Sequence record: MT613935.1
Direction: 5' to 3' (one strand)
Length of the DNA stretch: 44,033 nucleotides
Source of the DNA: Pseudomonas phage Persinger
The notes beneath the pieces are model-generated. The model worked only from the letters and a program-made list of their open reading frames with translations. It was not told the DNA's origin and searched no databases. Position numbers and translations under genes: made by a program. Below are positions 4,286 through 37,497 of the stretch, piece after piece (position 1 is the stretch's first letter; each line of letters opens with the position of its first letter).

Positions 4286-4576
4286 TTACTCCACGTTATG
4301 CGGACAGGTAGCGCAACGAATGCGCCTGATGACGGCGGCACGAATGTGCGGCCAAACGGTTTTCATCCAGCAGTGACGAACGCCGATGGCTGCCACAGTG
4401 CAGTTCAGCGCGGTTTCGCTGCCCTGGCCTGGGTTGCTCAGCACGCCCAAGGCCGCGAGCATCAGCAGCATGTAAAGGACTTTGCCCACGATGCCGTCAC
4501 TGACGCGCTTGTACAGGATGCACCAGAACGCCCAAACCACGATGACGGACACTGCCACCACGTTGACCAGGATCAT
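4286..4576 (-). CDS. Small two-TM membrane protein (holin/antiholin-like)
   Basis: 96 aa with two hydrophobic helices (VNVVAVSVIVVWAFWCILY; VLYMLLMLAALGVL). Lies between the holin and the endolysin, ATGA-coupled to the holin. Confidence 0.4.
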   Translation of the reverse strand: MILVNVVAVSVIVVWAFWCILYKRVSDGIVGKVLYMLLMLAALGVLSNPGQGSETALNCTVAAIGVRHCWMKTVWPHIRAAVIRRIRCATCPHNVE

Positions 4577-4902
4577 TATTCGCCGCCTCCAGTCTTGCCG
4601 ATCTTCGCTTTGACCAGCGAAATCAGGTCAAGGTTCTTGATGGCGCGAAATCCAGCAGCCAGCAGCGAACCGCCGAACGCACCCAGCAGGAAGCCGACGC
4701 TACCAGCCAGGCCGGGGTCGATGCTGTAAGCGCTGATGGCCCAGGGAGTGCCCCAATAGGCGCAGGCCACGCCAGTGCATACGAACCACGCACGCCCGCC
4801 CCAGCCGCTCAGTTCCTCTTGGAACTTCAGCGCGACCAGGGCGCCAATGAAGCCGGCGATGATGGCCTTGTCGGTGTTCAGTAGCCGTTCCAGGAAGTCC
4901 AT
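4576..4902 (-). CDS. Holin
   Basis: 108 aa with three predicted TM segments, Gly/Ala-rich (IIAGFIGALVALKF..., FVCTGVACAYWGTPWAISAY, GSVGFLLGAFGGSLLAAGF), charged C-terminus. First gene of the lysis cassette. Confidence 0.5.
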   Translation of the reverse strand: MDFLERLLNTDKAIIAGFIGALVALKFQEELSGWGGRAWFVCTGVACAYWGTPWAISAYSIDPGLAGSVGFLLGAFGGSLLAAGFRAIKNLDLISLVKAKIGKTGGGE

Positions 4903-5408
4903 CAGCGGCGGACCTGTTTGCGGGTGATGGGTTGCATGGTTGCCGACCTCTGAAGTGATGATGGCGGATTGTTATCGTTCGCTGCCTTGGCATCCTCTTG
5001 TGGGATTTCCCGCAGCAGGTTTCGAACGTGACGGTCAGACACGCCCAGCAGCTCGGCGATGGCATCAGGCTTCATTCCCTCGCGTGCCATGCGGATTGCC
5101 GACTGGTCACGGAATCGCCTGTAAATCTCTGCGCAGCTCGCCGGCTGCAGAATCTCGCCACCGAACGCATCGACCAGGCGCTTGGCGTCGTGCCATCCAA
5201 GGATGCGCACCAGGCTGTCGTCAGGCTTCAATCGCTTGGGCACGTACATGATGACCCGGACGCCGCGCTTGCTGGTCTTTCCGTCGCGGCCATAGGACTT
5301 TGCGCCATCGACGCCCGCATAGCACCTTGGCAGCTGCCCGATCAAGTATAACGCGCGCTCACGCCCAATAACGTCCGCTATCTCCTGTGCGCTCGCAGGT
5401 AATTGCAC
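4902..5408 (-). CDS. Mor/C-family transcriptional activator (candidate late-gene activator)
   Basis: Core resembles Mu Mor. LVRILGWHDAKRLVDAFGGEILQPASCAEIYRRFRDQSAIRMAREGMKPDAIAELLGVSDRHVRNLLR ends in the C-terminal HTH. The ORF reads on through EIPQED (19-bp repeat copy B) and AANDNN before stopping. Confidence 0.55.
   Translation of the reverse strand: MQLPASAQEIADVIGRERALYLIGQLPRCYAGVDGAKSYGRDGKTSKRGVRVIMYVPKRLKPDDSLVRILGWHDAKRLVDAFGGEILQPASCAEIYRRFRDQSAIRMAREGMKPDAIAELLGVSDRHVRNLLREIPQEDAKAANDNNPPSSLQRSATMQPITRKQVRR
4992..5010 (-). repeat. 19-bp late element copy B (18/19 match, ATCCTCTTGTGGGATTTCC)
   Basis: Lies in the 3' tail of the Mor-like gene (read as EIPQED), 90-108 bp upstream of the holin start (4902). 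Confidence 0.75.
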
Positions 5409-5490
5409 GTCACGCCCCTTGTATTTCTATGTTTGTCTAGTGGGGCAATTGTAGCAGATGCTTTGGCTGTGCTGTGCAGAAAATGAGCGA

Positions 5491-5753
5491 ATGACCACCG
5501 TAGTGACCAGCTTGTCACAGGCTGAAGCCTTAGTGCCACAAGGCTTTCAGGCGTTTTCAGTGACCACCATGACCAACATGACCACAGTTCCTATAAATAC
5601 CCATACCGTTATGTCACTCTGCTACTACGCCCCTATATTTCTTTTAAATGGTAGTCACGTAGTCACTGATATAGCTGTAAGCCTTCTACGGCGCGGGTTT
5701 CAGCGATGACCAGCGTTGGTCACGGTGGTCATGGTGGTCACTGAGTTGGTCAC
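5491..5753. repeat. Iteron cluster: two opposed arrays of 7-bp repeats (GTGACCA/ATGACCA vs TGGTCAC/TGGTCAT) flanking an AT-rich core; candidate P4-type ori/crr or multi-site operator
   Basis: Left array same orientation: 5491, 5504, 5560, 5569, 5578 (9-bp period), 5706. Right array inverted: 5717, 5726, 5735, 5747 (9/9/12 spacing), plus TAGTCAC x2 at 5652 and 5660. AT-rich 5585-5650 between. No ORF of substance spans it. Confidence 0.6.
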
Positions 5754-5795
5754 TGAATGACGGATCGCTGACGCAAGCTTTCCGCCTGGGGAATG

Positions 5796-7750: not shown

Positions 7751-7806
7751 CGTTTCGTTGAAATCATTTTCAGGTTTACGCACGTAAACATCCAATTGAT
7801 TGTTTC
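7751..7806 (-). promoter_or_regulatory. Conserved promoter/operator block, copy 1 (perfect 16-bp palindrome GTTTACGTGCGTAAAC)
   Basis: Reading the minus strand: TCAATTGGATGTTTACGTGCGTAAACCTGAAAATGATTTCAACGAAACG. TTGGAT / 17 bp / (TG)AAAAT geometry with the palindrome (7774-7789) in the spacer. Near-identical block at 16652-16706. Confidence 0.5.
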
Positions 7807-7856
7807 TATCGCCTCCACGCGCGCCAATAGAAAACCCCGCCGAAGCGGGGTTGGTC

Positions 7857-10130
7857 TTAGATTGGCGGTCCTATGTGCCTGTGCAGCTCGGGCGGCATCT
7901 TGAACAGCCGTTTGCTGGCCGTCCTGCGCGGTGGTCCGCCGGTCATCTTCTGCAGTAGGCGCGAACAATCGGTGGCCTGGCTCTTGGTCGGCCTGTCGTA
8001 ACCCAGCGCCATCAGCACGTCGGTGGCGGTCATTTCCTGGCCGCTGCCGCGCATGTTCCAGTTGAACCGCTGCAGCAGCAGTTCTTCCAGCGGGTCGATG
8101 GCTTCGTGTTCCTTGTTGACGCCTTCCAGTTCGGCTTCCTCTTCGCGCTCCAGCCACCAGCGTTCGCCTGCACGGTAAAGGGTCGCGACCTCTGCCCACA
8201 GCTGCTGCACGTCGATGCCGTGCTGGTAGTCCAGGTTCACAATGGGGATGGTCCACCAGCGGACGTTTCCAGTGTCGTCGGCCAGGAACCGTTCGGGGTT
8301 CACGCTGGCGAAAAACACGGTGCGGCGCTGGTATGCGGATTCAAGGCGGTCATACGGCCGGCGCAGCTGGTCAACGTCCTGCGAAATGAACGCCTTCAGC
8401 TTCGCAATGTCGGCCTTGCGGAAAGTGCCGTCCAGTTCGCCCAGCTCGACAATCCAGTGACCAATCGCGCTGCTGATGGTGTCCTTGTTGTTCGGGTCGA
8501 TGCTGGCGCCGATCTTCACCAGCTCGCGCTGCAGTGCCGGCAGCAGCGCCTTGACCCAGGCTGTCTTCCCAAGCGATTGCGGACCCTGCAGCACCAGCAC
8601 GCCTTTGGACCAGAAACCCTTCGGCATCAGTGCTGCTGCCACGGCCGAAATCAGCCAGCGGCGCACGAACAATTCCAGCATCTTGCGCGGGTAGCCTGGC
8701 GCAGTCTCCAGCGTGTCATAAAGCGCCTGCAACCTGCTGACGCCATCCCATTGCCTGGACAGGATGAAGTCAGCGGCTGGGTTGTAGCTGTTCATGGTGC
8801 CGATCAGCTTCAAGTAATCGGACGTGTCGGCCTTGGGCATGCGATTGCGCGCGCACAGTGAATTGATTTCAGCCAGGGCGCAGTTCGCCGCGTTGTCGTC
8901 GCCGTAGTGCCTGCCTGGGACGGTCACCACCACGTCTTTCTTGATTACGTTGTATTTCGCCGTGATGCCGTACTGCTCCAGCATCCACTGCAGGTTTTCC
9001 CAGGTGTTCAGCGGCTGCTGTCGGTCGGACAGGTGCGGGAACATGAACGGGTTAACGCTGCTGTCCAGGTCCAGGTAATTGTCGTTCGCGGCCTTCGGGA
9101 CTGCTGCGTTGATCTGCTCGCGCACGGCTTCGATGCCTTCCAGGGCGTGCAGGTCGTTGAAGTCGGTCGGCTTGGTCGTCAGGCTTTCGAACTGTGGCAC
9201 CACCAGGATTGCGTTAGCCGAGCTGGCCGCCTGGCGCGCGTAGTGGATACCGTCGTTTTTCTTGTCCTTTGCCCACTGGTCGTTATCCGCGCAAATCAGC
9301 AGGGTGGCAGCTGGGAACAACTCACGCATGGCGCGCGCGATGGTCGGCACGTTGCCTGCGTCGAACGCCACGGCGACGCAGTGTCCGGTGGCCATATGGA
9401 TGCTGGCGCCTGTCGAATAACCCTCGGCCACGGCGATGACCGGCTGTGCGCCAATGGGCTTGCCGCCGAGCATGAAGAACCCGCCGCGCTTCTGGCCGCC
9501 TGGCAGATAGTCGCGGTCGCGGCCGATTTCGGCGTTTTCGTTGGCGAAAATTGCCTGCAGGCTGACCAGGTGGCCGTCGATGTTCTGGATGGGCACCAGC
9601 AGCGCTTCCTGGCCGTTTCGCCACTTGCCGATGCGCAGACCGAACGACAGCACGCCTTTGCGCTGCAGATAGGGGTGTTCGTCGCCTTCCAGGTCGGCGG
9701 CCAGGTTCCAGATAGACTGCGCGCGCTCGGCTGCCATGGCGCGTTTGCGTTCGCGCTCCATGCGCTCGGCCTCTTCCTCGGCTTTGCGCTGCTGCCTGCG
9801 CCGCTCGATTTCCGATTGGTCGATTGGCTCGCGCAGGTCTTCGTTCAAGCTGAAGCCGAACTGCTGCGCCTCATGAATCAGGGTGGCAATAGTGATGCCG
9901 CCGTTAGGCTTGATGGACTTCCATGTGTCGCGGGCGTCCTTGCTGTCGTACTTTCCGGTCGCCTTCTTGCTCCAGTCGTCCCACAGTCTGAACCCGTCAT
10001 TGCCCAATTCGGACTTGATGGCCATGCCGATGCGCACCCACTCTTCGCGGCCACAGCTCGCGTCCAGGTAGGCCAGCGCCTCGGCGATCTCTTGTTCTGT
10101 CAAGTCGCGGTAAGCGTTCAGGGCGGTCAT
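7857..10130 (-). CDS. P4 alpha-like DNA primase/helicase (TOPRIM primase + SF3/D5-type helicase)
   Basis: 757 aa. TOPRIM signature (VAEGYSTGAS...LICADND). Walker A GPQSLGKT with downstream D5_N/DUF5906-like helicase region. AANDNY motif mid-protein. Confidence 0.8.
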   Translation of the reverse strand: MTALNAYRDLTEQEIAEALAYLDASCGREEWVRIGMAIKSELGNDGFRLWDDWSKKATGKYDSKDARDTWKSIKPNGGITIATLIHEAQQFGFSLNEDLREPIDQSEIERRRQQRKAEEEAERMERERKRAMAAERAQSIWNLAADLEGDEHPYLQRKGVLSFGLRIGKWRNGQEALLVPIQNIDGHLVSLQAIFANENAEIGRDRDYLPGGQKRGGFFMLGGKPIGAQPVIAVAEGYSTGASIHMATGHCVAVAFDAGNVPTIARAMRELFPAATLLICADNDQWAKDKKNDGIHYARQAASSANAILVVPQFESLTTKPTDFNDLHALEGIEAVREQINAAVPKAANDNYLDLDSSVNPFMFPHLSDRQQPLNTWENLQWMLEQYGITAKYNVIKKDVVVTVPGRHYGDDNAANCALAEINSLCARNRMPKADTSDYLKLIGTMNSYNPAADFILSRQWDGVSRLQALYDTLETAPGYPRKMLELFVRRWLISAVAAALMPKGFWSKGVLVLQGPQSLGKTAWVKALLPALQRELVKIGASIDPNNKDTISSAIGHWIVELGELDGTFRKADIAKLKAFISQDVDQLRRPYDRLESAYQRRTVFFASVNPERFLADDTGNVRWWTIPIVNLDYQHGIDVQQLWAEVATLYRAGERWWLEREEEAELEGVNKEHEAIDPLEELLLQRFNWNMRGSGQEMTATDVLMALGYDRPTKSQATDCSRLLQKMTGGPPRRTASKRLFKMPPELHRHIGPPI

Positions 10131-10169
10131 GGCTGGCGCCCTGTGCTGGTGAAATTCATTCGATGCCCC

Positions 10170-10409
10170 TTAGCCCTGGCGTGCGTACCAGATGGCCTTA
10201 ATTGTCGCTTCCAGACGCTGCACGGCCGCTTCGCCGCGCTTCTCCAGGATGCCGCCGCGTCGCTTGCCGCCTATTTCGTCCAGCTCGCCGCGCAGGAACT
10301 TGCGCCGTGCTGCCAGTGTCGGCATGGCGATGATGGCGCGTGCCTCGCATTCGTGCCGCCATTCCTCGCTGTCGCTGGCCGCCTGGCGGCCGTCGTGCAG
10401 CGTCACCAT
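10170..10409 (-). CDS. Hypothetical protein (79 aa)
   Basis: Start at internal Met (MVTLHDGRQAASDSEEWRHE...). The N-terminal part of the 166-aa track ORF overlaps the AlpA-like gene in another frame. Confidence 0.35.
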   Translation of the reverse strand: MVTLHDGRQAASDSEEWRHECEARAIIAMPTLAARRKFLRGELDEIGGKRRGGILEKRGEAAVQRLEATIKAIWYARQG

Positions 10410-10432
10410 AGTGGGTCGCCAGCTGCAGACGT

Positions 10433-10615
10433 TCACGACTGCGCGACCTTCACGCGCAGCAGCTCCAGGGCGTGTTCGGGAATCTCGCGGCGGTCGTCTT
10501 TGCACCGCCAGATGCGGACGGTTTGCGGCTTGCGGTTCAGCAGCTCGCCGACCTTTGCGGGCGTCAAGCCGTGTTCGGCCATCAGCTGGTGCAGCTGTTC
10601 GGTTCGTGTAGTCAT
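10433..10615 (-). CDS. AlpA/Xis-like small HTH regulator
   Basis: MTTRTEQLHQLMAEHGLTPAKVGELLNRKPQTVRIWRCK...: short HTH protein of the AlpA type sitting upstream of the alpha-like primase as in P4. Start at Met 10615. Confidence 0.5.
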   Translation of the reverse strand: MTTRTEQLHQLMAEHGLTPAKVGELLNRKPQTVRIWRCKDDRREIPEHALELLRVKVAQS

Positions 10616-10641
10616 GTCGTGTAATCGCTGGTGTTGAGGTA

Positions 10642-10689
10642 GGCGCCCATTGTACATGGGCGCGTTTCAATAAGTAAACAGTATCTGTT
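10642..10689. promoter_or_regulatory. Two perfect palindromes upstream of the AlpA-like gene (candidate operators)
   Basis: GCGCCCAT-TGTAC-ATGGGCGC (10642-10662) and AAACAG-TAT-CTGTTT (10675-10689), 27-75 bp upstream of start 10615. Confidence 0.4.
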
Positions 10690-10711
10690 TTTACTCACGC
10701 ATCACTGCAAA

Positions 10712-10870
10712 TCACTTCAGGCCATGCCGGATAGCGTGATAGACGGCCTTCTGCAGCGTTGACACTTCGACGCCGAGCGCTCGCGCTATGGCCTTCCATC
10801 CGATTCCTTCCTGGCGCAGCTCATAGGCCAGCGCCAGGTCGGCGTTCGTGTAGGTGGTCGGCCGGCTCAC
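10712..10870 (-). CDS. Small HTH protein (52 aa), below the ORF-track cutoff
   Basis: VSRPTTYTNADLALAYELRQEGIGWKAIARALGVEVSTLQKAVYHAIRHGLK. GTG start overlapping the HNH stop (GTGA). Hin/resolvase-type HTH (GIGWKAIARALGVEVSTL). Confidence 0.4.
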   Translation of the reverse strand: MSRPTTYTNADLALAYELRQEGIGWKAIARALGVEVSTLQKAVYHAIRHGLK

Positions 10871-11160
10871 GGCTGCGCCACCGGCTGGAACAGCACCGCG
10901 TCGCCACGGTGCACGTTCTCGCGTTGGGTCACTGGGTCCAGGTGGTCAGGGTTGCAGCACGCCCGGTTCTTGCACAGGTGGTCAAGCACCAGGCCGCCAG
11001 CGATGGGTCCGCGCAGCAGCTGCCAGACGACGCGGTGGACCATCAGGCGCTTGCCCTGGACCCACACGCGGCCATAGCCGTTGCGGTTCAGTTCGCCTTG
11101 CCATTCCCAGCACCAGGCAGCCGTCACCATGATGCGCGGCTGCAGTTTCTCCAGGCTCAC
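10867..11160 (-). CDS. HNH endonuclease
   Basis: 97 aa. WQGELNRNGYGRVWVQGKRLMVHRVVWQLLRGPIAGGLVLDHLCKNRACCNPDHL: HNH_3 pattern. Confidence 0.75.
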   Translation of the reverse strand: MSLEKLQPRIMVTAAWCWEWQGELNRNGYGRVWVQGKRLMVHRVVWQLLRGPIAGGLVLDHLCKNRACCNPDHLDPVTQRENVHRGDAVLFQPVAQP

Positions 11161-11459
11161 GCATCACGCGCCTTTCCGGCCTCGCCGGCTGCCTGGTTGT
11201 CGTTGTCTTCCTTGCCGGGCGCGGGTCGATGCGCTGCGCAGTAAGGACAGACCCAGCCATGGCGGTACTTAACCCACCCACGCTCACGCGCTTCCGTCTC
11301 AAGGTCGCGGTATGTATTGATCACTGAAGCCTGCGTGTCGGATGCTTCTTGCATCGGCCCTTCATTGTCGTGCGACCAGCACCTCTCCGGTGAGTAGCCT
11401 TTTCCATCTGACCACTTCTCGCACCGATCTTCGCAGCGTATTTCGATCCAGAAGCCCAT
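11157..11459 (-). CDS. Cys-rich hypothetical protein (100 aa), C-terminal EDNDNQ tail
   Basis: Start at Met 11459 (MGFWIEIRCEDRCEKW...), overlapping the upstream stop (TGATG). GWVCPYC near the C-terminus. Confidence 0.4.
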   Translation of the reverse strand: MGFWIEIRCEDRCEKWSDGKGYSPERCWSHDNEGPMQEASDTQASVINTYRDLETEARERGWVKYRHGWVCPYCAAHRPAPGKEDNDNQAAGEAGKARDA

Positions 11460-11692
11460 CACACCCCCTCCTTGCTGTTGCGCCGACGCCTCTCCCATGC
11501 TTCGAACTCCTGTCGCGTTGCCACACAGGATCCATGCGAGCAGCCATACTCGTGGCAAACGGTTTTGTTGCAGACCGAGCGAAATCCAGTTCCGCCGCAG
11601 TGATCGCATCCGGAGCGGCAGTGCGTGCATCTGAAGACCTCGCCAACCTGGCCGGTTCTGTTTCCGCCTGCATCCTGAACAGCATTCATCAC
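11459..11692 (-). CDS. Cys-rich zinc-finger-like protein (77 aa)
   Basis: CTHCRSGCDHCGG...CNKTVCHEYGCSHGSC: 12 Cys in 77 aa. ATGA-coupled to the upstream gene. Confidence 0.45.
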   Translation of the reverse strand: MMNAVQDAGGNRTGQVGEVFRCTHCRSGCDHCGGTGFRSVCNKTVCHEYGCSHGSCVATRQEFEAWERRRRNSKEGV

Positions 11693-12735
11693 ACCCCCTC
11701 CTTGCCGGGCGCGGCGGCGAGAAACTTACGTAGGTCACGAAGGAGTGCCCTGCCGGTGACGCCACGTTGTGCAAGAAATTCAGCTAGTCTGCCGATGAAC
11801 TCTTCCGGCACGCTGTGCTGAGCCTGGGCGCTATCCCCGGAGGCCTTCACGCATGACTTGATCGACGCCAACAGGTAGGACCAGGCGAAGCCGCGCTCCT
11901 GATTCGGGCGCAAACCAAGCGCACGTGCCACGTCATCGCGACACTGTTTGTCCAGGTCGTTGAGTTGCTGAGCCTGGGCTACAGGGGTACGAAGCCCGGC
12001 GATCAGCCGATCCACAATGGCCTTGTTCTTGAAATCGCCGTAGCGGGCGTCTGCTGTCGCATCGAGCAACTGTCTGGCCATGCGCAAAGTGCCTTCCTGC
12101 TCTGGATTGGTCGCCGTCTTGAACGAACCGAGCATTGCTGATAGTCCAATGCGCAGCGGGTCATGCGCGCGACTCAGCTTCTCCAACTCCGCGACCCTGG
12201 CCAGGGCGGCGTCGCGCTCCAGCACGATCTTCTGGGCAGCCTTGATGCTGGCGTGGTCGCCATGAACGAACAGATTGCCGTCGCCGCCACCAACGCCCAT
12301 GGTGCATTCGTAGGTTGGTCGCTCCGCCTCTGCCTGCACCGTGAATGGTTGTTTGAGCAGCTCGTTAACGCAGGCATCACGTTCTTTCTTGTCGCTGTAC
12401 CCATTGGGGTTGTTCTGTCCGTCGCCATAGCCCCACTCGTAAGCCTCGCGCAGCCGCTCCATCTCTTCCTGCTCGGACCGCGCCAGGAGGGCACGGCCTT
12501 GCCATGCCCGCCATGCTATTCGTTCGTCCTCCACAGAGAGAGTTTGGTGGCGCTGCACCTTGAAAACGCCTCTGTCTGTGTTTTCCTCGTAGGTGACTTC
12601 GTTCAGCCACGCATTGAACGCCGTGCGCTCATCCCCGCCTGCCTGCTCTACATTCGCAAACTCGCACCCCGGAATGCTGCACGGCATTCCGTCATTGTCG
12701 CCACACTTCCCGCATTTCTTGATAGTCATTTGCAC
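11689..12735 (-). CDS. Hypothetical protein (348 aa) with N-terminal Cys cluster
   Basis: CGKCGDNDGMPCSIPGC at the N-terminus. Long ORF in operon context with coupled start/stop. No family recognised. Confidence 0.55.
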   Translation of the reverse strand: MQMTIKKCGKCGDNDGMPCSIPGCEFANVEQAGGDERTAFNAWLNEVTYEENTDRGVFKVQRHQTLSVEDERIAWRAWQGRALLARSEQEEMERLREAYEWGYGDGQNNPNGYSDKKERDACVNELLKQPFTVQAEAERPTYECTMGVGGGDGNLFVHGDHASIKAAQKIVLERDAALARVAELEKLSRAHDPLRIGLSAMLGSFKTATNPEQEGTLRMARQLLDATADARYGDFKNKAIVDRLIAGLRTPVAQAQQLNDLDKQCRDDVARALGLRPNQERGFAWSYLLASIKSCVKASGDSAQAQHSVPEEFIGRLAEFLAQRGVTGRALLRDLRKFLAAAPGKEGV

Positions 12736-12911
12736 ACCTCAGCAGCATTCCCGCGATAGTCCGGCCAGCCGTACTGGCCGCGAGTGTCTTTGAAGGTCTG
12801 GACCATTTCGCAGTAGGTCGCCTGCTGTTGGTCCAGGTCGTCCGGTTGCCGTGCGTGATCCAGGGTCAGCATCACAGCGATGGCGAGCGCCAGCATTCCA
12901 AGCCAGTTCAT
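12726..12911 (-). CDS. Small protein with hydrophobic N-terminus (61 aa)
   Basis: MNWLGMLALAIAVMLTLDHA...: signal/TM-like start. ATGA-coupled to the upstream gene. Confidence 0.4.
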   Translation of the reverse strand: MNWLGMLALAIAVMLTLDHARQPDDLDQQQATYCEMVQTFKDTRGQYGWPDYRGNAAEVCK

Positions 12912-13069
12912 TTCGCGTCACTCAGGTGCCAGCCGTTGCAGTACCGGCATCCTTCCGGCCGGCGCAGAACGCCCTGGCGCTGGGCAATCGAATTGCAGGC
13001 GGCCTGCGCCTGGTCCTTGGTCTGGAAACGGCGGCGCAGCTTGCACTGGTGGTCGTCTTGAATCCGCAT
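12908..13069 (-). CDS. Small zinc-finger protein (53 aa) with CRYCNGWHLS motif
   Basis: Start at Met 13069 behind GAGGAA RBS. C-terminal C-x2-C-NGWHLS motif shared with the C-terminus of 13174-13512. Confidence 0.4.
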   Translation of the reverse strand: MRIQDDHQCKLRRRFQTKDQAQAACNSIAQRQGVLRRPEGCRYCNGWHLSDAK

Positions 13070-13120
13070 GGGTTGGTTCCTCGCGTTGTTGGTGTTTACG
13101 GTTGGAAATACTAGCCAGCG

Positions 13121-13158
13121 GCAAAGAAAAACGCCCATGAATTTCTTCTATGGGCGTT
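13121..13158 (-). terminator. Rho-independent terminator (minus strand)
   Basis: AACGCCCAT (13130-13138) / 11-nt loop / ATGGGCGTT (13150-13158). On the minus strand followed by TTTCTTTGC. Confidence 0.5.
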
Positions 13159-13173
13159 CGGGCGTATGATAGG

Positions 13174-13512
13174 TTACTGCGCGTTGTTGTCGTTCGCTGG
13201 CGCCTGGCTGCTCAAGTGCCAGCCGTTACAGTGCGGGCACAGGTAGAACCGCGTTGGTATCTTCGGCGTCTTCGGGTCGTGCCTGATGTGACCAAGCGCA
13301 ATCATCGCGTCCAGCTCGGTGCGATAGCGCCGTTTTCTGCAAACGATTTGCCCATTCGGCAGACGCCACGCCACCGCCTTGCCGTGCACGATGATGATAG
13401 CGGCTCCAGCATCGCGCACCAGGGCGGCCATGGCCTTGGCGATGTAGCCACGACGCCGGCCATGTTCGTGTTCGATGCGCGCCCGACGCTTGGCGAACTC
13501 GGCGGCGTTCAC
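13174..13512 (-). CDS. Putative HNH-like/zinc-ribbon nuclease with CPHCNGWHLS motif and C-terminal PANDNNAQ
   Basis: Start set at GTG 13512, overlapping the stop of the small zinc-ribbon ORF (GTGA). ...EHEHG...LGHIRHDP...YLCPHCNGWHLSSQAPANDNNAQ. The track's longer N-terminus is Arg-rich and overlaps a better small ORF. Confidence 0.35.
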   Translation of the reverse strand: MNAAEFAKRRARIEHEHGRRRGYIAKAMAALVRDAGAAIIIVHGKAVAWRLPNGQIVCRKRRYRTELDAMIALGHIRHDPKTPKIPTRFYLCPHCNGWHLSSQAPANDNNAQ

Positions 13513-13655
13513 AGCGCACCGCCTACGATTTCCTTTCCTTTCGCGTTCGCCTTGGCTTTGCATGACTTGCCGCAGTACAGACCCCAGCCACGGCGGGCAT
13601 CGGACGCGCGAGCCTTGAATGACTGTCCGCAATTGGCGCACTCGCGATCAACCAT
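13509..13655 (-). CDS. Small C4 zinc-ribbon protein (48 aa), below the ORF-track cutoff
   Basis: MVDRECANCGQSFKARASDARRGWGLYCGKSCKAKANAKGKEIVGGAL read from the sequence (CxxC...CxxxC). Weak RBS. Confidence 0.3.
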   Translation of the reverse strand: MVDRECANCGQSFKARASDARRGWGLYCGKSCKAKANAKGKEIVGGAL

Positions 13656-13675
13656 CAGCGGCTGTGGTTTGCGGT

Positions 13676-14059
13676 TCACATTTCACCTTCCACGACGCGC
13701 ACCGCGTCTTCAGCGCAGCGGACCACGCCAGCGCGCCCGCCGTTGTCGTTCACGGCCTGGATGAATGCCTGCTGCTGGGTGGTCGGCTTGCCCTTCGGCG
13801 TCTTCACTTCCAGCGCGGTGAACACGGCGACTTTCTGTCCGACCATATCGGCGGTGATCGTCACCGGCACCAGGCCGAACAGGTCGCTGAACCCAGGCGG
13901 CAGGCCGGTGGTGAACGGTCGCGCGTTGATAATCAGCATGTTCCGGCCCTGGCGCACGAACTGTTCACCAGTCCACGCCTGGCCGACGTTGGCGCGGAAG
14001 ATCAGTCCCTTGCCGGCCAGTGCGTTTCTGATGGTGTTCTGGATGGCGTGTTCGCTCAT
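13676..14059 (-). CDS. VRR-NUC domain nuclease
   Basis: 127 aa. GFSDLFGLVP...ALEVKTPKGKPTTQQQAFIQAV fits the VRR-NUC PD-(D/E)xK core (D...E-x-K). Confidence 0.55.
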   Translation of the reverse strand: MSEHAIQNTIRNALAGKGLIFRANVGQAWTGEQFVRQGRNMLIINARPFTTGLPPGFSDLFGLVPVTITADMVGQKVAVFTALEVKTPKGKPTTQQQAFIQAVNDNGGRAGVVRCAEDAVRVVEGEM

Positions 14060-14286
14060 TTCTTCGCCCTCGACTTCGTGACGATGTGGTTAGGGTTCGC
14101 CTGCGCCAGCCGCTCGGCCGGCACGCAAATGAACGGCCGAACGCCGGTCAGCACAGGGAACCATTCGCCATCGAACTGCACCCAGTCGCGGCGCGTGCGC
14201 TTCCGGTATTCCGGCTGGCGATCCACCGTGGTGAACAGGTGGCCAGGCGACCCATCGGGCCGCCTTTCGTGAACGTCGATCAGCAC
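14056..14286 (-). CDS. Hypothetical protein
   Basis: Start proposed at GTG 14286, overlapping the upstream stop (GTGCTGA). The ATG at 14376 would overlap the upstream gene by ~95 nt. Confidence 0.3.
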   Translation of the reverse strand: MLIDVHERRPDGSPGHLFTTVDRQPEYRKRTRRDWVQFDGEWFPVLTGVRPFICVPAERLAQANPNHIVTKSRAKK

Positions 14287-14546
14287 GGTGCACCACCAAG
14301 CAGTCCAACTGGCTGCAGCTGGGAAGTGCCCACAACGTCCAGCACTTCCAGGGTCATAGCTTCCACCATCAGCCATGCTAAGGCTTTGGCGGTGTTCTTG
14401 GGCATGGCCGCGCGAGTGACGTACTCACCGCCATCTGGATAGCGGCAGCTGGCGAAGATTACGCGCTCGCCGTACTGGTTTCCCTCAACCCACCAGCGCA
14501 TCGGAAGCCGGTGGGGGAAAGGGTATCGGGTGAATTGGCGGTTCAT
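14280..14546 (-). CDS. Hypothetical protein (88 aa)
   Basis: ATGA-coupled to the upstream gene. No family recognised. Confidence 0.4.
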   Translation of the reverse strand: MNRQFTRYPFPHRLPMRWWVEGNQYGERVIFASCRYPDGGEYVTRAAMPKNTAKALAWLMVEAMTLEVLDVVGTSQLQPVGLLGGAPC

Positions 14547-15199
14547 GCTGTCAGTTCCTTTGATTCGTTGTTGTCGTTGGCCGGGTTTCGCACAGCGCTT
14601 CTGGCTATAGAAATCAGAACGTCACGAAACTCTTGCGGCGTTGCGTTGCGAATCCTGGTCTTATCCTTACCTCCAACCATCGCCATCATCCCGATACGCC
14701 TGGCTTTCTCATACCCGTAAAGCTCGACGGCGCGAGGATGAAGCTTTTGCGGTGATGGACCCCATACTAGTTCAGGAAGATGTACGCCTGCCGCGTAAAG
14801 CCATGTGGGCTTGCGTGAAAGGTGCCCATAGTGCCCCTGCTCGACGTAGCAGGTCCACCCACCATATTCGTCAGCCTTCACCCATCCGCCAGATTTTGGC
14901 GGCACGTTCAGGCCGAAGTATCGCCACGCATGCGAGTGCGCAGGGTGTTCGATTACGCCGCCATAGTTTCTAACTGCCGTCAGTGCGGCTGCGAAGCATC
15001 CGCCATCCTCGCCAAGACGAAACTGGTGCGGCTTGTTTGGCGCGCCGTGCCAGTAACGCCCCCAGCGCTGGCACGGCGGATGCGCAACGACAGGATTCAT
15101 TCCGCTGTACTTCCTCGCGTCTCTAGCCTCATCCCAAGGGTCAACGCCATCAAGCCCGAAGTAGGCACCATCAGTTTCGACGTAGAGCGCAGCAATCAT
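14543..15199 (-). CDS. Conserved hypothetical protein (218 aa), C-terminal PANDNNESKELTA
   Basis: Trp/His/Tyr-rich (HPPCQRWGRYWHG, HPAHSHAWRYFG) suggesting a metal or nucleotide site. No confident family assignment. Confidence 0.45.
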   Translation of the reverse strand: MIAALYVETDGAYFGLDGVDPWDEARDARKYSGMNPVVAHPPCQRWGRYWHGAPNKPHQFRLGEDGGCFAAALTAVRNYGGVIEHPAHSHAWRYFGLNVPPKSGGWVKADEYGGWTCYVEQGHYGHLSRKPTWLYAAGVHLPELVWGPSPQKLHPRAVELYGYEKARRIGMMAMVGGKDKTRIRNATPQEFRDVLISIARSAVRNPANDNNESKELTA

Positions 15200-16173
15200 A
15201 CCGCACCTTCCTGCAGCTCCAGCTGCTTGGCCTTGTCGGCCTTCTCGCGCGCCTTGCGCTGTTTCTCTTCCAGGACGCGCTGCGCTTCCTCCAGGATCAG
15301 ATGCACCTGCATGGCGGCTTCCACGCTGATGGTCACGGTGCCTTCGGTGATTTCGCCCCGGTGGAATCGGTCGATGGCCACCAGGTCGTCAGGCTTGAAC
15401 GCGGCGTGCAGCTTGGTGGCGGTCTGGTGCAGGTCGTCCAGCAGGCTGCGCGGCACGCTCGGCCCTTTGATGGTGCCGGCAGTGACCTTGCCTTTCCCCT
15501 GCGCCTTGGCTTTCTCCAGTTCCTCGGCCAGCGCCTCGCCGGCCTTCTCGCCGTGCTTGCGCACCAGCTTGACCGCCTCTGCACCGGACACGACGCCATC
15601 CCTTACGCCCTGCTGAACTTCCGGCGGTGCGCTCGCGAGCGCCAGCAGCTGGTCCACGCGCTGCCTGGTCATGCCAATGGCCTTGGCGATTTCATCAGGC
15701 TTGCGCCCACGCGCAGCCTTGCGCTGGCAGCCACGCGCCATTTCCAGGTCGGTCAGCCGGCGGTTCTTGTTGCTGGTGAAAATGCGGTCTTCCTGTTCCT
15801 CTTCGTCGCCGTCGAACGGCACGACGGAAACCCAGTAATCCGTCACGCTAGGGTCGGTCTTGCTGGGCGTGCGCGCCAGTCGGCCTTCGGTGTCCAGCTT
15901 CCACAGTGCGCGCGTGCGGCACTCGCCATCGACCAGCCAAACGCCGCCTTCCTCGCGCGGAACGACTTCCAGCGGCGGAATGGGCATGCCGTCTGCGATC
16001 AGGTCGGCCAGTTCGTCGATGCTTTCCTGGAAGGTCTTCCCGTTCTCGTCGCGCTCTTCCGGGTCACGCAGGTTGAAGCCGGGTCGAATGTGGATTTCTT
16101 CCAGTCGGACTTTCCAGGCGTCGGCGCGTTTCGCGGTGCCTTGGTCGCGCAGCTGGTTAAAGGTCGTTGCCAT
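15196..16173 (-). CDS. ParB-like nuclease (ParB/Srx N-terminal) domain protein with HTH and coiled-coil C-terminus
   Basis: IHIRPGFNLR...PIPPLEVV...VDGECRTRA ParB N-domain signature. HTH (IAKAIGMTRQRVDQLL). Lys/Glu-rich C-terminus. No ParA partner in the window. Confidence 0.65.
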   Translation of the reverse strand: MATTFNQLRDQGTAKRADAWKVRLEEIHIRPGFNLRDPEERDENGKTFQESIDELADLIADGMPIPPLEVVPREEGGVWLVDGECRTRALWKLDTEGRLARTPSKTDPSVTDYWVSVVPFDGDEEEQEDRIFTSNKNRRLTDLEMARGCQRKAARGRKPDEIAKAIGMTRQRVDQLLALASAPPEVQQGVRDGVVSGAEAVKLVRKHGEKAGEALAEELEKAKAQGKGKVTAGTIKGPSVPRSLLDDLHQTATKLHAAFKPDDLVAIDRFHRGEITEGTVTISVEAAMQVHLILEEAQRVLEEKQRKAREKADKAKQLELQEGAV

Positions 16174-16408
16174 GTTTAAACACTCCGTGGTTGATGAATT
16201 TGCAGCCGGCAGAGCCGACGCGGTGGGGGAAGTGGTAGCCGTCGCAGTGGCAGGTGCGCGGGTGGTTCTTGCGCTCGTTCATCCACCGATCAGGCCGGAA
16301 ATCGCGGGCGCCGCAGTTCCCGCATCGTGGCTGTACCTGGTACGCATCCGGGTGTCGTTTCAACGCCCGGCGCGACCCACAGCGGCGGCAGCGGCAGTGG
16401 GTTTTCAT
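16157..16408 (-). CDS. Cys/His-rich zinc-finger protein (83 aa)
   Basis: CRCRRCGS...CGNCG...CHCDGYHFPH...GC. Confidence 0.45.
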   Translation of the reverse strand: MKTHCRCRRCGSRRALKRHPDAYQVQPRCGNCGARDFRPDRWMNERKNHPRTCHCDGYHFPHRVGSAGCKFINHGVFKHGNDL

Positions 16409-16627
16409 TTACACGGCGCGCCAGTCGCTACCGGAAACGACCAGCTTGCTGCCGTCGCTGAACGTCCAGGTAGTGGCCTCGTTCTCCCAGTCCTGTACAC
16501 CTTCGCAGAACTGGTCGGCCGCACGCATGGCGTCGTCGGCGTCAATTGCGGTGGTAGCGATTGCCACAGCGGTGCTGGTGGTGGCCAGGCTGGTGGCGGA
16601 AATATTGGTGTCGGCGGTCATGTCCAT
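16409..16627 (-). CDS. Hypothetical acidic protein, first gene of the second early operon
   Basis: Start at Met 16627 (MDMTADTNISATS...) behind AAGAGGAA RBS. The track's longer ORF translates the conserved promoter block. Confidence 0.4.
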   Translation of the reverse strand: MDMTADTNISATSLATTSTAVAIATTAIDADDAMRAADQFCEGVQDWENEATTWTFSDGSKLVVSGSDWRAV

Positions 16628-16651
16628 GGCGCGTTCCTCTTGGCGGTGTTG

Positions 16652-16706
16652 CGTTTCGTTGAAATGATTTTCGCCGTTTCCATCCGTAAACATCCAATTG
16701 ATTTTC
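16652..16706 (-). promoter_or_regulatory. Conserved promoter/operator block, copy 2 (degenerate palindrome GTTTCCATCCGTAAAC)
   Basis: Minus strand reads AATCAATTGGATGTTTACGGATGGAAACGGCGAAAATCATTTCAACGAAACGC, near-identical to 7751-7806. Lies between the helicase stop and the 16627 start. Confidence 0.5.
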
Positions 16707-16710
16707 GCTA

Positions 16711-18172
16711 TCAGCGCCGCCGGCCTGCGAAAACTTTTCGCGCCCAGGCCATCGGCGAGCTGTAGCCACGGCGGTGACCCAGCGCCACCAGCTCGTCCAG
16801 GGTCTTGGCCTCGGCCTGTTCGCGTGCACGTTCGCGACGGATGCGCGCCTTGTCGTCGTCGGTCATTTCGCGCAGCTCGCCTTCGGCTACTTCCATCGGC
16901 TTTTCTTCGCGCTTCAGCAGCTTTTGGCAGTATGGGCAGCAGTCCGGCAGCGGACGGCGGATGGCGTTAAAACAGCCTTCGCAGATGACTGGCGGCGGTG
17001 GTCCGTTGTCGTTCGATGCCTTGCCCTTCTCGCGCCCTTCCAGTGACCATTCGCGGTCATCGTCAGGGAAGCCGTGGCGCATGGCGTTGCCGGCGTGGTC
17101 CAGGATGACGGCGACTTTGCCAGGTGCTGGGCGCAGCGCTCGGCCGACTTGCTGCAGGTGCAGCGACAGCGATTGCGTCGGCCTGGCCTGGATAACCGCG
17201 TCAATGGTCACGTCCTGCTGTGCGATGGCCGACAGGTCGAAGCCTTCGCCGAACAGGTCAACGTTCGTCAGCACCTGGATACGTCCGGCGGCATAACCCT
17301 GGATGATGCTCTTTCGCTCGCCCTTGGGCGTGCCGCCGTCCAGGTGCGCAGCTGGGATGCCTGCCAGGTTGAACTGCTCGGCCAGGTGCTGGCTGTGCGC
17401 GACAGTGACGCCGAACGCCACGGTGCGCATGCCCTCGGCGTACTTGCGCCAGTGGCTGATGATGTTGCCGGTTAGCTTCGGCTTGTCCATCTTTTCTGCG
17501 GCGTCTTTCTTGCCGAAGTCGCCCATCTTCCGGCGAACGCCCTTCATGTCCGGCACGTCCGGCGCGAACACGCGGTAATGCGATAGGTGCCCTTGGTCGA
17601 TCAGCCAGCCAACGGATGGACCAAGCACGATTTCGTCAAAGTGGTCATCAAGGCCCTGGCCATCCAGGCGCTGCGGCGTGGCCGACAGGCCGACAACATA
17701 GGCGCCATTCTCGCTCAGCCACTGGATGACCAGCGCCCAACCTGCGGCGCCACTATGGTGCGCTTCGTCCACGATGGCGACCTTGGGCGGTATCAGCTGA
17801 GCCAGGCGGTTCTTTAGGGTGTCGATGCTCGCAATCTGCACCAGCTCGCGCAGGTTCATTGGCTGGCCGGCGGCGATGAAGGCGTGGGCGATGCCGAACT
17901 TGCGGAACGTCAAGCTGGTCTGTAGCACCAGTTCGGCGCGGTGGCAGATGAACCAGCAGCCCTGGTTCCTGGCGGCAGTCTCCCAGTTCGGCGCGGTGGC
18001 AGATGAACCAGCAGCCCTGGTTCCTGGCGGCAGTCTCGCCTGCCATGAACGACGCCAGGGCGGTTTTCCCTGCGCCGGTCGGAGCCTGCAGCAGCACACG
18101 CCGCGACCTGCGCATGGCCTGCCTAGCCTTCTGGATTATGTCCTGCTGATAGTCACGCAGCTGAATTGCCAT
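16711..18172 (-). pseudogene. SF2 (DEAD/DEAH, SNF2/type-III-res-like) helicase, frameshifted by a 55-bp tandem duplication
   Basis: N-terminal ORF (17753-18172: DYQQDII...LLQAPTGAGKT) and C-terminal ORF (16711-18099) both contain ETAARNQGCWFICHRAEL. Removing one 55-bp repeat unit restores a single helicase reading frame. Motifs DEAH (VDEAHH), SAT (LSATP), arginine finger region QQVGRALR. Confidence 0.7.
17928..18037. repeat. Perfect tandem duplication, 2 x 55 bp
   Basis: CCAGTTCGGCGCGGTGGCAGATGAACCAGCAGCCCTGGTTCCTGGCGGCAGTCTC occurs twice back to back (17928-17982 and 17983-18037). 55 is not a multiple of 3. Confidence 0.9.
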
Positions 18173-18238
18173 AATTTGAATTCATCATGGGTAACGGAGG
18201 TTAACCGACAGTATACAGAAGTAATCGGAAGGAATGCC

Positions 18239-18646
18239 ATGCCCAAAAGCTTAAAAAACGCCGAGCATCGCGCAGTAGTCATGAAAATGACCATAGAAAT
18301 TGTCGTCACGTTCTGTAAAGCCTATTTCGACAGCGCGCGGCCGGCGGATCGCGTCAATGACATGCTGATTTGTGGGGCGCTGGTGGTCGGCCAGGCAGAG
18401 GGGCACCCGCTGAATGCGTCGAAGGTTTCAGAGTGGACGACGATGGCCAGGCCAACGGTCATCAGACGCCTTGCCGTGCTTGAGAAAAAGGGGTTCGTGC
18501 AGCGTCACGGAAATGTGTTCAGGGTTAGTGACGACAGGGTTAACGCAGGGGCGATTGAGGAGGCAGGAAAGGCGGCGCGCGGGCTTATCCTGAACGCAGC
18601 CGCGCAACTGTCCAAACTGGACACTAAGGGCGTTGCTCGGCGCTGA
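18239..18646 (+). CDS. Winged-helix transcriptional regulator (candidate immunity/switch regulator)
   Basis: 135 aa. NASKVSEWTTMARPTVIRRLAVLEKKGFVQRHGNVFRV: wHTH. Sits alone between the divergent minus-strand early operon and the plus-strand recombination operon. AGGAA RBS. Palindromes GGTTAACC / GTATAC in the 66-bp gap to the helicase start. Confidence 0.5.
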   Translation: MPKSLKNAEHRAVVMKMTIEIVVTFCKAYFDSARPADRVNDMLICGALVVGQAEGHPLNASKVSEWTTMARPTVIRRLAVLEKKGFVQRHGNVFRVSDDRVNAGAIEEAGKAARGLILNAAAQLSKLDTKGVARR

Positions 18647-18764: not shown

Positions 18765-19889
18765 ATGAAACCAGGCGTTTATCCCGGCATCCCGAATGCC
18801 GACTACCACGGCGGCCCCGGCATCAGTAAGTCGGGGCTGGACCTGATCCACCGCAGCCCGATGCACTATCATGCCGTGGTCACGTCGGCGAACGACAACC
18901 GCGAACCGACCGCAGCCCAGGCGTTCGGCACTGCTGCGCATTCGCTCATTCTGGAGCCGGCAGAATTCGTGAAGGAATACTGCCTGGCTCTGCGCCAGGC
19001 CGACGTTCCGCACGCCATTGATGACCGCGACCAGCTGGTGGCGATGGTGGCCAAGCTGAACGAAAACCGTTTGCCGAAACTGGCAACCACCGGAAGCAAG
19101 GCCGAGCAAATCGAACGCATCCTGGATGCGCAGCCGCAGGAAACCTGGACGCCCGACCAGTTGGACAAGATGAAGGGAGCCGAGCTGAAAGAGATTCTGA
19201 ACCAGCTGAACGTCAATCGCCCTGGCCTGCTGCCCACCAGCGGCAACCGCCACGAACTGGCCGAGCTGCTGCGCGACAACGGCGTGGAAGTCACGCTGTG
19301 GTCGGACGTGCAGGCCGAGTGGTCGAAGAACAACGGAACCCGCACGGTGCTGACCCAGGAACAATGGGACCAGCTGCACGCGATGCGTGACGCGGTGATG
19401 GCGCACCCAGCCGCCGGCAAGCTGCTGACGGGCGTTCCTGGCGTTGCCGAACTGTCCGTGTACTGGAACGACCCGATGACCGGCGTTCTGTGCCGCTGCC
19501 GCCCCGACTGGTGGCGCGAAGATGACCTGCTGGTGGACCTGAAGACCACCGACGACGCCAGCCTGGAAGGGTTCGCCAGGTCGATTGCGAACTGGCGCTA
19601 TGACGTGCAGGCGCCTTTCTATCTCGACGGCGTGCGCATCGCCACCGGCCGCAAGCCTCGCGGGTTCGTGTTCATCGCCGTGGAGAAAAAGCCGCCGTAT
19701 GCGGTGGGCGTATACGTCCTCGACGCGGAAAGCCTGGAACTCGGCCGCGCCCAGTATATCGCCGACCTGAAGCGCTATGCCGAGTGCGAGCGGACGAACA
19801 CCTGGCCTGGATACGGCGACAAAATCCAGACCATCAGCGTGCCGGCCTGGCACGCGAACAAGAACGCGCATCTGCTCGATGCGTCCTGA
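18765..19889 (+). CDS. PD-(D/E)xK exonuclease (YqaJ / lambda-Exo / RecE-like) with N-terminal SAP-like motif
   Basis: 374 aa. PDWWREDDLLVDLKTT nuclease core. ELKEILNQLNVNRPGLL SAP/HeH-like. SANDNREP near the N-terminus. Followed by a Sak4-like annealase. Confidence 0.65.
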   Translation: MKPGVYPGIPNADYHGGPGISKSGLDLIHRSPMHYHAVVTSANDNREPTAAQAFGTAAHSLILEPAEFVKEYCLALRQADVPHAIDDRDQLVAMVAKLNENRLPKLATTGSKAEQIERILDAQPQETWTPDQLDKMKGAELKEILNQLNVNRPGLLPTSGNRHELAELLRDNGVEVTLWSDVQAEWSKNNGTRTVLTQEQWDQLHAMRDAVMAHPAAGKLLTGVPGVAELSVYWNDPMTGVLCRCRPDWWREDDLLVDLKTTDDASLEGFARSIANWRYDVQAPFYLDGVRIATGRKPRGFVFIAVEKKPPYAVGVYVLDAESLELGRAQYIADLKRYAECERTNTWPGYGDKIQTISVPAWHANKNAHLLDAS

Positions 19890-20929: not shown

Positions 20930-21148
20930 ATGGGACAAGCTGCCGAATACCTGACGCCTGCCGAACTGGCGAAGCGCTGGGGTGGTGCTGTGACCACCGG
21001 CACGCTGGCGAACTGGCGCAGTAAGGGCACCGGCCCGGCCTTCGCGAAGTTCGGTAGCCGTGTCCGGTATCCGCTGGCAAAGGTGGTGGAGTGGGAAACC
21101 GCGAACCTGCACCTGGTCGGCGCAAACGATAACGAACAGGGGAACTGA
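20930..21148 (+). CDS. Excisionase/AlpA-type HTH DNA-binding protein (72 aa), C-terminal GANDNEQGN
   Basis: LTPAELAKRWGGAVTTGTLANWRSKGTGPAFAKFGSRVRYPLAKVVEW: HTH_17-like. Confidence 0.5.
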   Translation: MGQAAEYLTPAELAKRWGGAVTTGTLANWRSKGTGPAFAKFGSRVRYPLAKVVEWETANLHLVGANDNEQGN

Positions 21149-37475: not shown

Positions 37476-37497
37476 TCTGCTGGGCAGGGCGTGGCGC

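Follow-up and report, generated by a model that had tools for sequence, protein, structure and literature searches.

In Pseudomonas phage Persinger (genus Harrisonburgvirus), the genes for replication and recombination form a minus-strand module with two blocks of about 55 bp at 7751-7806 and 16652-16706. They raise the question of what such repeated blocks control, which protein recognizes them, and whether they belong to lysogenic immunity, as a first-pass annotation had framed them. The window analysed here is the whole 44,033-bp genome (G+C about 63%), which is collinear with that of Pseudomonas phage PPpW-3 in reverse orientation. Comparison with related phages suggests that the blocks are members of a family-wide set of cassettes, each probably a sigma-70-type promoter with a dyad operator, which start successive units of the replication module and would be repressed by a 60-aa Xre/Cro-like helix-turn-helix (HTH) protein, hereafter HTH60.

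The near-identity of the two blocks is real, as 48 of 56 aligned columns match and the remainder comprises one 1-nt indel and 7 substitutions; the exact common stretches are AATCAATTGGATGTTTACG and GAAAAT[G/C]ATTTCAACGAAACG. Both blocks end 24 nt ahead of the first ATG of a minus-strand gene set (ATG 7726 and 16627). Chance does not account for them, because homologous blocks occupy both syntenic places in PPpW-3 and in the IMG/VR relative L002, and a more diverged one is present in L003. As originally proposed, the blocks resemble promoter and operator cassettes before separate early (replication-module) transcription units, and the dyad does lie in the predicted promoter spacer, between a -35-like TTGGAT and a -10-like GAAAAT. 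Some details required correction. The supposedly perfect 16-bp palindrome of the 7.78-kb copy (cassette B), GTTTACGTGCGTAAAC, has the reverse complement GTTTACGCACGTAAAC and consists of two perfectly inverted 7-bp arms with a non-symmetric TG between them; in family terms this corresponds to arms of 5-6 bp and a 4-bp spacer. The frame given as TTGGAT-17-(TG)AAAAT is in fact TTGGAT-18-GAAAAT in cassette B and TTGGAT-19-GAAAAT in the 16.69-kb copy (cassette A). The graded repressor affinity suggested for the two copies is plausible, since they differ in their match to the symmetric consensus.

Four related cassettes with the common dyad core TTTAC-N4-GTAAA are present in the window, at about 16.69 (A), 13.10 (C), 10.67 (D) and 7.78 kb (B). 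The 16-mer GTTTAC-N4-GKAAAC at up to 2 mismatches gave 11 strand-hits against 1.96 expected, and the 10-position core at up to 1 mismatch gave 3 against 0.12, a count that none of 100 shuffles reached; all three core matches are intergenic, at A, B and C. Site C is the weaker third match that had been listed at 13088-13108. It is real and syntenically conserved, but its match to the opposite strand arises only from the quasi-palindromic nature of the dyad; where relatives have the cassette intact, it is oriented with the operon strand. Cassette C has a degenerate left arm and no credible -10 in Persinger, PPpW-3 and L002, and an intact promoter stands there in L003 and in the phages Mano and Mica, so that the copy in the former three looks like a decayed form of it. 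Cassette D had escaped the first-pass annotation; its TTTACT-18-TACAAT is the only good sigma-70 match on the minus strand of the region and was called by the promoter scan. A possible fifth site, ATTACTTCTGTATA, sits in the 66-bp divergent region between the helicase and a winged HTH (wHTH) gene and recurs in PPpW-3 and L002, whereas a strong double dyad occupies this place in Mano. Matches to TTCAC..GTGAA were also seen in the window (5 against 0.9 expected), all in coding regions and antisense to genes, and were judged to be codon-composition effects. The single operon once drawn from 16627 to 10170 is split by an intrinsic terminator, by the third site and by the fourth cassette with its own predicted promoter, and the succession of terminator and cassette C recurs in PPpW-3, L002, L003 and Mano.

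The architecture was compared in 42 homologous cassettes from 12 phages of eight host genera, anchored on the dyad. Remoter relatives of Persinger are Achromobacter phage Mano, Burkholderia phage Mica, Ralstonia phage phiRSP, Klebsiella phage KA2-1, Serratia phage MQ-4, the Xanthomonas FoX phages and, among further enterobacterial phages, Escherichia ep3, ECO1230-10 and HeidiAbel and Enterobacter Arya. The exact full-cassette pattern ATCAATTGGNTGTT..GAAAATNATTTC was too strict and had no match in IMG/VR, and relatives were later gathered via the primase; the primase search of genome contigs returned only distant Zoogloea loci and an archaeal fragment, which were not used. There are four syntenic places for the cassettes: A follows the helicase, C the mid-module terminator and B the primase, and D precedes the HTH60 gene. 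Those of the A, B and C types are laid out as T(G/A)ATAG, 10 nt, a -35-like TTGGNN, the dyad, a -10 hexamer and a start region; they often carry ATTTCA-CGA(A/C)AAC and have the conserved start region ATTTCAACGAAAC. The exact string GATAG-N10-TTGG is found in Persinger only at A and B. The dyad operator is 14-16 bp long throughout the family. The -10 hexamer of the relatives is often nearer to consensus than the GAAAAT of Persinger (GATAAT, TATAGT, TAGAAT, TATTAT, TATAAT), for instance, at the same position, GATAAT in L002, TTGGCA-16-GATAAT in KA2-1 and TATAAT in Mano, which supports a promoter function.

All sites of a genome have one half-site in common, and between genomes this half-site shifts symmetrically. 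It is TTTAC..GTAAA in Persinger, PPpW-3, L002, HeidiAbel, ep3, KA2-1 and MQ-4 and mostly so in Mano, mixed (TTYAC) in L003, TTCAC..GTGAA in phiRSP (3 sites) and Mica (4 sites), and TTTAA..TTAAA in Arya (3 sites). Such concerted symmetric change argues for an operator of a phage-encoded dimeric protein. The distance from dyad to -10 spans -4 to +7, the lower extreme being that of Mano, in which TATAAT is overlapped by the dyad, with -35/-10 spacers of 16-19, and this variable position, including that over the -35 at D, fits steric occlusion of RNA polymerase and not a helical-phase-dependent activator.

Other conserved features accompany the cassettes. In A and B cassettes of Pseudomonas, Escherichia, Ralstonia and Burkholderia phages, T(G/A)ATAG lies exactly 10 nt upstream of the -35 TTGG, and D-type cassettes carry the related element GTGATGCG; possible explanations are an UP-like element, a second binding site or a stop-codon cluster. 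Cassette D of Persinger includes a GC-rich hairpin (10643-10663, minus strand; arms 10663-10656 and 10650-10643; -15.9 kcal/mol, z = -4.9), the loop and right arm of which are occupied by the TACAAT of the predicted HTH60 promoter. Sequence-by-sequence folding of the cassette-D places (L001, L002, L003 and L011-L019) revealed a strong hairpin in 10 of the 11 related phages. The arm sequences differ, such as ATGGTCCT/AGGACCAT in Arya and CGCGACGT/ACGTCGCG in FoX5, and the retention of the hairpin points to compensatory changes. The enterobacterial relatives have a near-identical leader, CACATAGGGCGGCGGCAGGATGCAGCCGGAGAGGAGCAACGCAGGGG, after several cassettes (L012 about 4215-4275, L015 about 4480-4540, L018 about 4715-4775, L019 about 4120-4180), at cassette positions that differ between phages; it is absent from Persinger. 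A small RNA is one possible identity, a conserved structured leader another.

HTH60 is the best candidate for the dyad-binding protein. Its gene occurs in all 13 of 13 genomes, always just upstream of the DUF7696 gene and the primase gene, and comparison with ORF-49 of PPpW-3 places its true start at the internal ATG 10615. The recognition helix reads PQTVRIW, EQTVLIW (HeidiAbel) or DQTVRIW in phages with TTTAC, AQTVRVW in both TTCAC phages (phiRSP and Mica), VSTVRVW in Arya (TTTAA) and VQTVYMW in L003 (TTYAC). At the four promoter-proximal sites, the short dyad with its constant half-site overlaps promoter elements, lying between the -35 and -10 at A and B and over the -35 at D. The AlphaFold model of HTH60 has a predicted local distance difference test (pLDDT) value of 87 and four helices (4-15, 19-25, 30-37 and 47-59). 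Its best Foldseek neighbours are Aca10, controller (C) proteins of restriction-modification (R-M) systems, ClgR, P22 c2 and 434 Cro, with template modelling (TM) scores of 0.66-0.80. These neighbours are mostly small dimeric operator-binding regulators. The model is consistent with a helical HTH domain of the lambda-repressor-like fold. In addition, HTH60 matches phrog_14341 (E = 5e-17), a PHROGs family labelled 'transcriptional repressor'. A search for protein homologues retrieved close relatives only (72-83% identity) and added nothing to the covariation of helix and half-site, and sequence searches of the PDB gave no informative match for HTH60 or the wHTH protein (best E = 0.14 and 0.21).

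The repeats, their positions and conservation, the covariation and the phyletic patterns are read from the sequence itself; that the cassettes act as promoters, that a protein binds them, which protein does so and in which direction it controls them are inferred. Early in infection, host RNA polymerase would fire the helicase promoter along with cassettes A, D and B. Produced from D together with the primase, HTH60 would accumulate and bind the dyads as a dimer. Occupation of the D dyad over the -35 would bring about negative autoregulation, and occupation of the A and B dyads between -35 and -10 would block RNA polymerase, with a further action at the helicase promoter conceivable. Rising HTH60 could thus lower transcription of the replication module as infection proceeds, with a sensitivity graded by dyad fit in which B (perfect) would respond most, A (one mismatch) next, and C and D more weakly. 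The likely role of HTH60, judged from these sequence comparisons, is a Cro-like throttling of replication-module promoters in lytic growth and not lysogenic immunity; such a Cro/Ner-like function would be independent of the swappable immunity repressor.

Several observations weigh against this proposal. The recognition helix of Mano is divergent (PTTISMW) although its half-site is mostly TTTAC, the half-site of FoX5, read by eye, is mixed, and the link between helix and half-site comes from few independent lineages and partly follows phylogeny. The DUF7696 gene is as universal as that of HTH60. Foldseek gave weak E-values (0.2-1), which is usual with a domain of 60 aa, and the Pfam HTH_23 score of 21.9 bits falls below the cut-off of 24.6. 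Cassettes A and B reach only 7/12 against the sigma-70 consensus and were not called by the promoter scan, so that an activator may be needed. The TGATAG element and the start region are not accounted for by a plain repressor, and literature searches retrieved no transcription-start, binding or expression results for any phage of the group.

The lysogeny framing of the first-pass annotation would make the dyad the operator of the immunity repressor, the wHTH protein encoded at 18239-18646, which would silence two early operons in the prophage with graded affinity. The wHTH gene does stand in the classical divergent repressor position, with the weak dyad-like element inside the divergent region, Persinger has an integrase and a tRNA-adjacent site, and the wHTH homologues of PPpW-3, L002, Mano, Mica and phiRSP have a common helix, RP(T/S)V(I/V)R(R/K). 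However, phiRSP and Mica combine this protein with the half-site TTCAC. No wHTH homologue was found in L003, ep3, KA2-1 or FoX5, the first three being without any gene at that position, and HeidiAbel, Arya and MQ-4 have an unrelated CI-like repressor instead; nevertheless, L003, ep3, KA2-1, HeidiAbel, Arya and MQ-4 keep the dyad cassettes and FoX5 keeps related ones. The wHTH protein is therefore disfavoured as the binder. HeidiAbel and Arya CI share the recognition helix TTAVTVSRWE while their dyads differ. The system is also retained in ep3 and ECO1230-10, which are described as strictly lytic (PMC9151335), arguing against an immunity operator. Across the relatives the operator neither co-occurs nor co-varies with the immunity repressor, and we regard the immunity reading as improbable. 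The other regulators nominated at the outset fared no better in the phyletic and covariation comparison: the AlpA-like HTH_17 protein is near-universal, but its recognition region GAVTTGTLANWR is invariant across differing half-sites, and the 52-aa HTH protein is unique to Persinger, no homologue being found in any relative. The same invariance bears on a MerR-type control in which the AlpA-like protein would bind the dyad in an over-long 18-19-bp spacer and activate by untwisting the DNA. The spacers of 18 and 19 bp, a dyad between -35 and -10 centred about 8.5 bp after the -35, as in the merT, zntA and copA promoters, and the annotation of the Arya homologue as MerR family all agree with it. 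Nevertheless, it is very unlikely, considering that homologous cassettes lack the fixed geometry of MerR-type promoters (19-20-bp spacer, constant dyad centre), with spacers between 16 and 19 and the -10 at -4 to +7 from the dyad, and that the only MerR-superfamily match is this 72-aa protein, which consists of the HTH_17 domain; no MerR-type regulator with an effector domain or coiled coil was found.

There is a small chance that HTH60 is instead an activator, or a dual regulator like the C proteins, which turns on the weak A and B cassettes and represses only its own promoter. The poor sigma-70 match of A and B (18-19-nt spacers), the C proteins among the nearest structural neighbours and the different dyad placement at D (over the -35) would agree with such a role, but the dyad centre at A and B lies at about -22 to -23, from where only MerR-type activators are known to work. 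Moreover, homologous cassettes differ by up to 11 bp in how far the dyad lies from the -10, which a face-of-helix-dependent activator should not tolerate, and the Mano dyad overlaps the -10 itself. It seems equally unlikely that another protein binds the dyad, the candidates being DUF7696, the Mor-like late activator, the ParB-like protein and a protein of the host. DUF7696 and the Mor-like protein are encoded in essentially all examined genomes, and the TTCAC of phiRSP and Mica resembles a parS half-site. On the other hand, phages with different dyads share a Mor-like recognition helix, SERTVKRH in the case of Arya and HeidiAbel and DRHVRNL in that of Mica and Persinger. The ParB-like gene is missing from five dyad-bearing phages (HeidiAbel, ep3, KA2-1, MQ-4 and Arya), and the half-sites here are 4 bp apart as opposed to abutting in the 16-bp parS. 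A host factor fits poorly, because the half-site does not follow the host, differing between phages of related enterobacteria yet being common to eight host genera. DUF7696 has no recognisable DNA-binding motif; being universal, it may still be a partner or an alternative binder. The dyad could also work as a hairpin, in RNA or in DNA, that needs no specific protein, with symmetric changes as compensatory base-pair changes; these do preserve arm complementarity, and the dyad would be present in read-through transcripts. The stability is negligible, however (-4.2 kcal/mol and z = -0.9 for cassette B, no fold for cassette A), imperfect sites lose pairing without compensation, the same arm sequence recurs at all sites of one genome, which a hairpin does not need, and Rfam gave no family match in the window except a transfer RNA (tRNA) elsewhere. 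Weak folding and uncompensated mismatches leave this explanation unsupported and extremely improbable. A minor probability also goes to a dedicated replication-module transcription system that needs a second phage factor (e.g., DUF7696 or a DksA-like protein), or to a promoter dependent on DNA structure. That idea draws on about 70 bp conserved between phages of Pseudomonas, Escherichia, Serratia, Ralstonia and Burkholderia, on T(G/A)ATAG at 10 nt, on the fixed start region ATTTCAACGA(A/C)AAC and on the compensatory hairpin around the -10 of cassette D.

Repression of the replication-module promoters by HTH60 would be ordinary phage gene control of a kind not yet described for this phage group; no description of the cassettes or of HTH60 function was found in the literature. 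By analogy, it comes close to the Cro-type repressors (lambda, 434 and P22 Cro; Mu Ner), small HTH proteins from an early lytic transcript that act on short dyad operators inside early promoters and turn early transcription down, and the HTH60 model has 434 Cro and P22 c2 among its structural neighbours. Unlike here, a lambdoid Cro shares its operators with CI in one immunity region, where the three swap together, and its gene comes first after the divergent promoter. In the Persinger group the immunity-repressor gene is swapped or lost with dyads unchanged, the putative operators extend over 4-5 promoters across 9-10 kb, and HTH60 lies mid-module beside the primase. C proteins and the anti-CRISPR-associated (Aca) repressors, Xre-type HTH dimers of 60-80 aa, recognise inverted repeats located at or close to their own -35 and autoregulate. 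C.Esp1396I, C.BclI, C.EcoT38IS and Aca10 are the best structural matches to the HTH60 model (TM 0.70-0.80), and an own-promoter -35 site is what cassette D suggests for HTH60. They differ in controlling a single operon and are only 14-19% identical to HTH60, and no activator-type upstream site is evident in the Persinger cassettes.

Scattered operators are known from P1 (C1) and from phiC31, whose conserved inverted repeats lie beside conserved early promoters. The many copies of one short operator spread through the genome also recall the stoperators of cluster A mycobacteriophages (PMC9283540, PMC6550527). Common to such regulons are repeated similar promoters before separate units and concerted variation between related phages. 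In all three systems, however, the operators belong to the immunity repressor, and L5-type sites are asymmetric, bound by a monomer and block elongation in one orientation. Those of the Persinger group are symmetric, lie within promoters, are retained by relatives that are strictly lytic and vary without regard to the immunity repressor, which is what sets the proposed scheme apart from known Cro or stoperator logic. It offers a regulatory map for widespread P2-like-tailed myophages (Harrisonburgvirus, Hiroshimavirus, Jilinvirus, Manovirus, Micavirus and relatives), several of which have been proposed for phage therapy or biocontrol; the replication module would be divided into three or four units with one promoter type and one operator, and the 60-aa protein is nominated as their regulator. 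The natural operator variants (TTTAC, TTCAC and TTTAA) with variant helices could serve as a specificity series for HTH-DNA recognition. Regulation of the lytic module apart from a swappable immunity repressor also bears on whether 'lytic' members are repressor-deletion derivatives.

The module begins with the 66-bp divergent region (18173-18238), the helicase, a ParB-like/VRR-NUC unit and an intrinsic terminator. It continues with small genes including an HNH endonuclease, HTH60, DUF7696, the primase and a second terminator, and it is followed by a further unit to about 5838, an iteron-like region, the Mor-like late activator and lysis genes (Table 1). Pfam confirmed the labels ParB HTH, VRR-NUC and HNH given in the first-pass annotation, but not MazG (E<=0.001).

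Table 1. Positions of cassettes, genes, terminators and peptide motifs in the Persinger genome
Feature	Position	Strand	Remark
Cassette A (copy 2 of the first-pass annotation)	16652..16713	-	syntenic homologues in 12 phages
A: TGATAG	16713-16708	-	TGA 16713-16711 is the helicase stop codon, inside the cassette
A: -35-like TTGGAT	16697-16692	-	direct indexing
A: dyad GTTTACGGATGGAAAC	16691-16676	-	one mismatch to consensus
A: -10-like GAAAAT	16672-16667	-	19-nt spacer
A: conserved start region CATTTCAACGAAACG	16666-16652	-	predicted start ~16660, ATG 16627
Terminator, stem AACGCCCAT / ATGGGCGTT + T-run	13123..13158	-	intrinsic; closes cassette-A unit, just upstream of cassette C
Cassette C, degenerate copy	13094..13118	-	before ATG 13069
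C: -35-like CTGGCT	13118-13113	-	sequence
C: dyad ATTTCCAACCGTAAAC	13109-13094	-	core match at <=1 mismatch
C: no credible -10 (CACCAA)	13093-13088	-	sequence
Cassette D, predicted promoter of HTH60-DUF7696-primase unit	10643..10679	-	sigma-70 scan, 9/12
D: dyad GTTTACTTATTGAAAC	10679-10664	-	overlaps -35
D: -35 TTTACT	10678-10673	-	18-nt spacer
D: -10 TACAAT	10654-10649	-	predicted start ~10642
HTH60, 60-aa Xre/Cro-like HTH protein	10433..10615	-	proposed dyad-binding repressor
DUF7696 protein, 78 aa	10170..10406	-	always between HTH60 and primase
Primase, 757 aa	7857..10130	-	last gene of cassette-D unit
Terminator 3' of primase	7833..7852	-	intrinsic; 8-bp stem, 6 GC pairs, T-run; directly upstream of cassette B
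Cassette B (copy 1 of the first-pass annotation)	7751..7810	-	preceded by primase terminator
B: GATAG	7810-7806	-	upstream element
B: -35-like TTGGAT	7795-7790	-	direct indexing
B: dyad GTTTACGTGCGTAAAC	7789-7774	-	perfect 7-2-7
B: -10-like GAAAAT	7771-7766	-	18-nt spacer
B: GATTTCAACGAAACG	7765-7751	-	predicted start ~7759
B: ribosome-binding site GGAGGG	7739-7734	-	ATG 7726
Weak dyad-like ATTACTTCTGTATA	18212..18225	-	8/10 core positions; overlaps TATACT -10-like hexamer
wHTH protein, 135 aa	18239..18646	+	weak IclR/TrmB-type HTH; immunity-repressor position
[AS]NDN	654-665	-	large terminase, C-terminal end
[AS]NDN	4971-4982	-	Mor-like activator, C-terminal end
[AS]NDN	9078-9089	-	primase
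[AS]NDN	13186-13197	-	open reading frame (ORF) 13174
[AS]NDN	14570-14581	-	ORF 14543
[AS]NDN	17005-17016	-	helicase
[AS]NDN	18888-18899	+	exonuclease VIII
[AS]NDN	21122-21133	+	AlpA-like protein, C-terminal end
[AS]NDN	21463-21474	+	ORF 21151

The helicase gene contains a perfect 55-bp tandem duplication (17928-18037). The deposited frame ends after 139 aa, and removal of one copy restores an intact 468-aa helicase as in the relatives; the duplication is either a genuine mutation or an assembly artefact. A tRNA gene (24958-25031, plus strand; Rfam 68.6 bits) adjoins a tyrosine-integrase-like gene (23400-24644, minus strand), as would suit a temperate phage whose attachment region is associated with a tRNA.

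Nine occurrences of the peptide motif [AS]NDN, each in frame with a real gene, stand against about 0.08 expected from composition. Its codons vary synonymously, indicating conservation at the peptide level, and in the relatives every Mor-like and AlpA-like homologue ends with ..ANDN.., so the motif looks like a short linear motif for a common partner. Five copies of the exact 18-19-nt GGAAATCCCACAAGAGGA(A) were found in minus-strand reading (619-645, 4984-5010, 31500-31526, 37490-37516 and 41925-41951). The tail sheath gene (ATG 31440) and a baseplate gene (ATG 37475) each have one intergenic copy just upstream, and the other three lie within the terminase 3' end, the Mor-like 3' end and the capsid-protease gene; the element is a candidate late-promoter or leader element on which the Mor-like activator possibly acts. 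Dense direct and inverted GTGACC/GGTCAC repeats at about 5440-5760 separate the last early unit, with its terminator, from the Mor-like gene and include a 28-nt inverted pair with 93% complementarity (5557-5584 and 5717-5744). This array is probably a replication origin or a late-activator control region, and HeidiAbel has a similar GGTCACC array at the same place (L012, 2208-2615).

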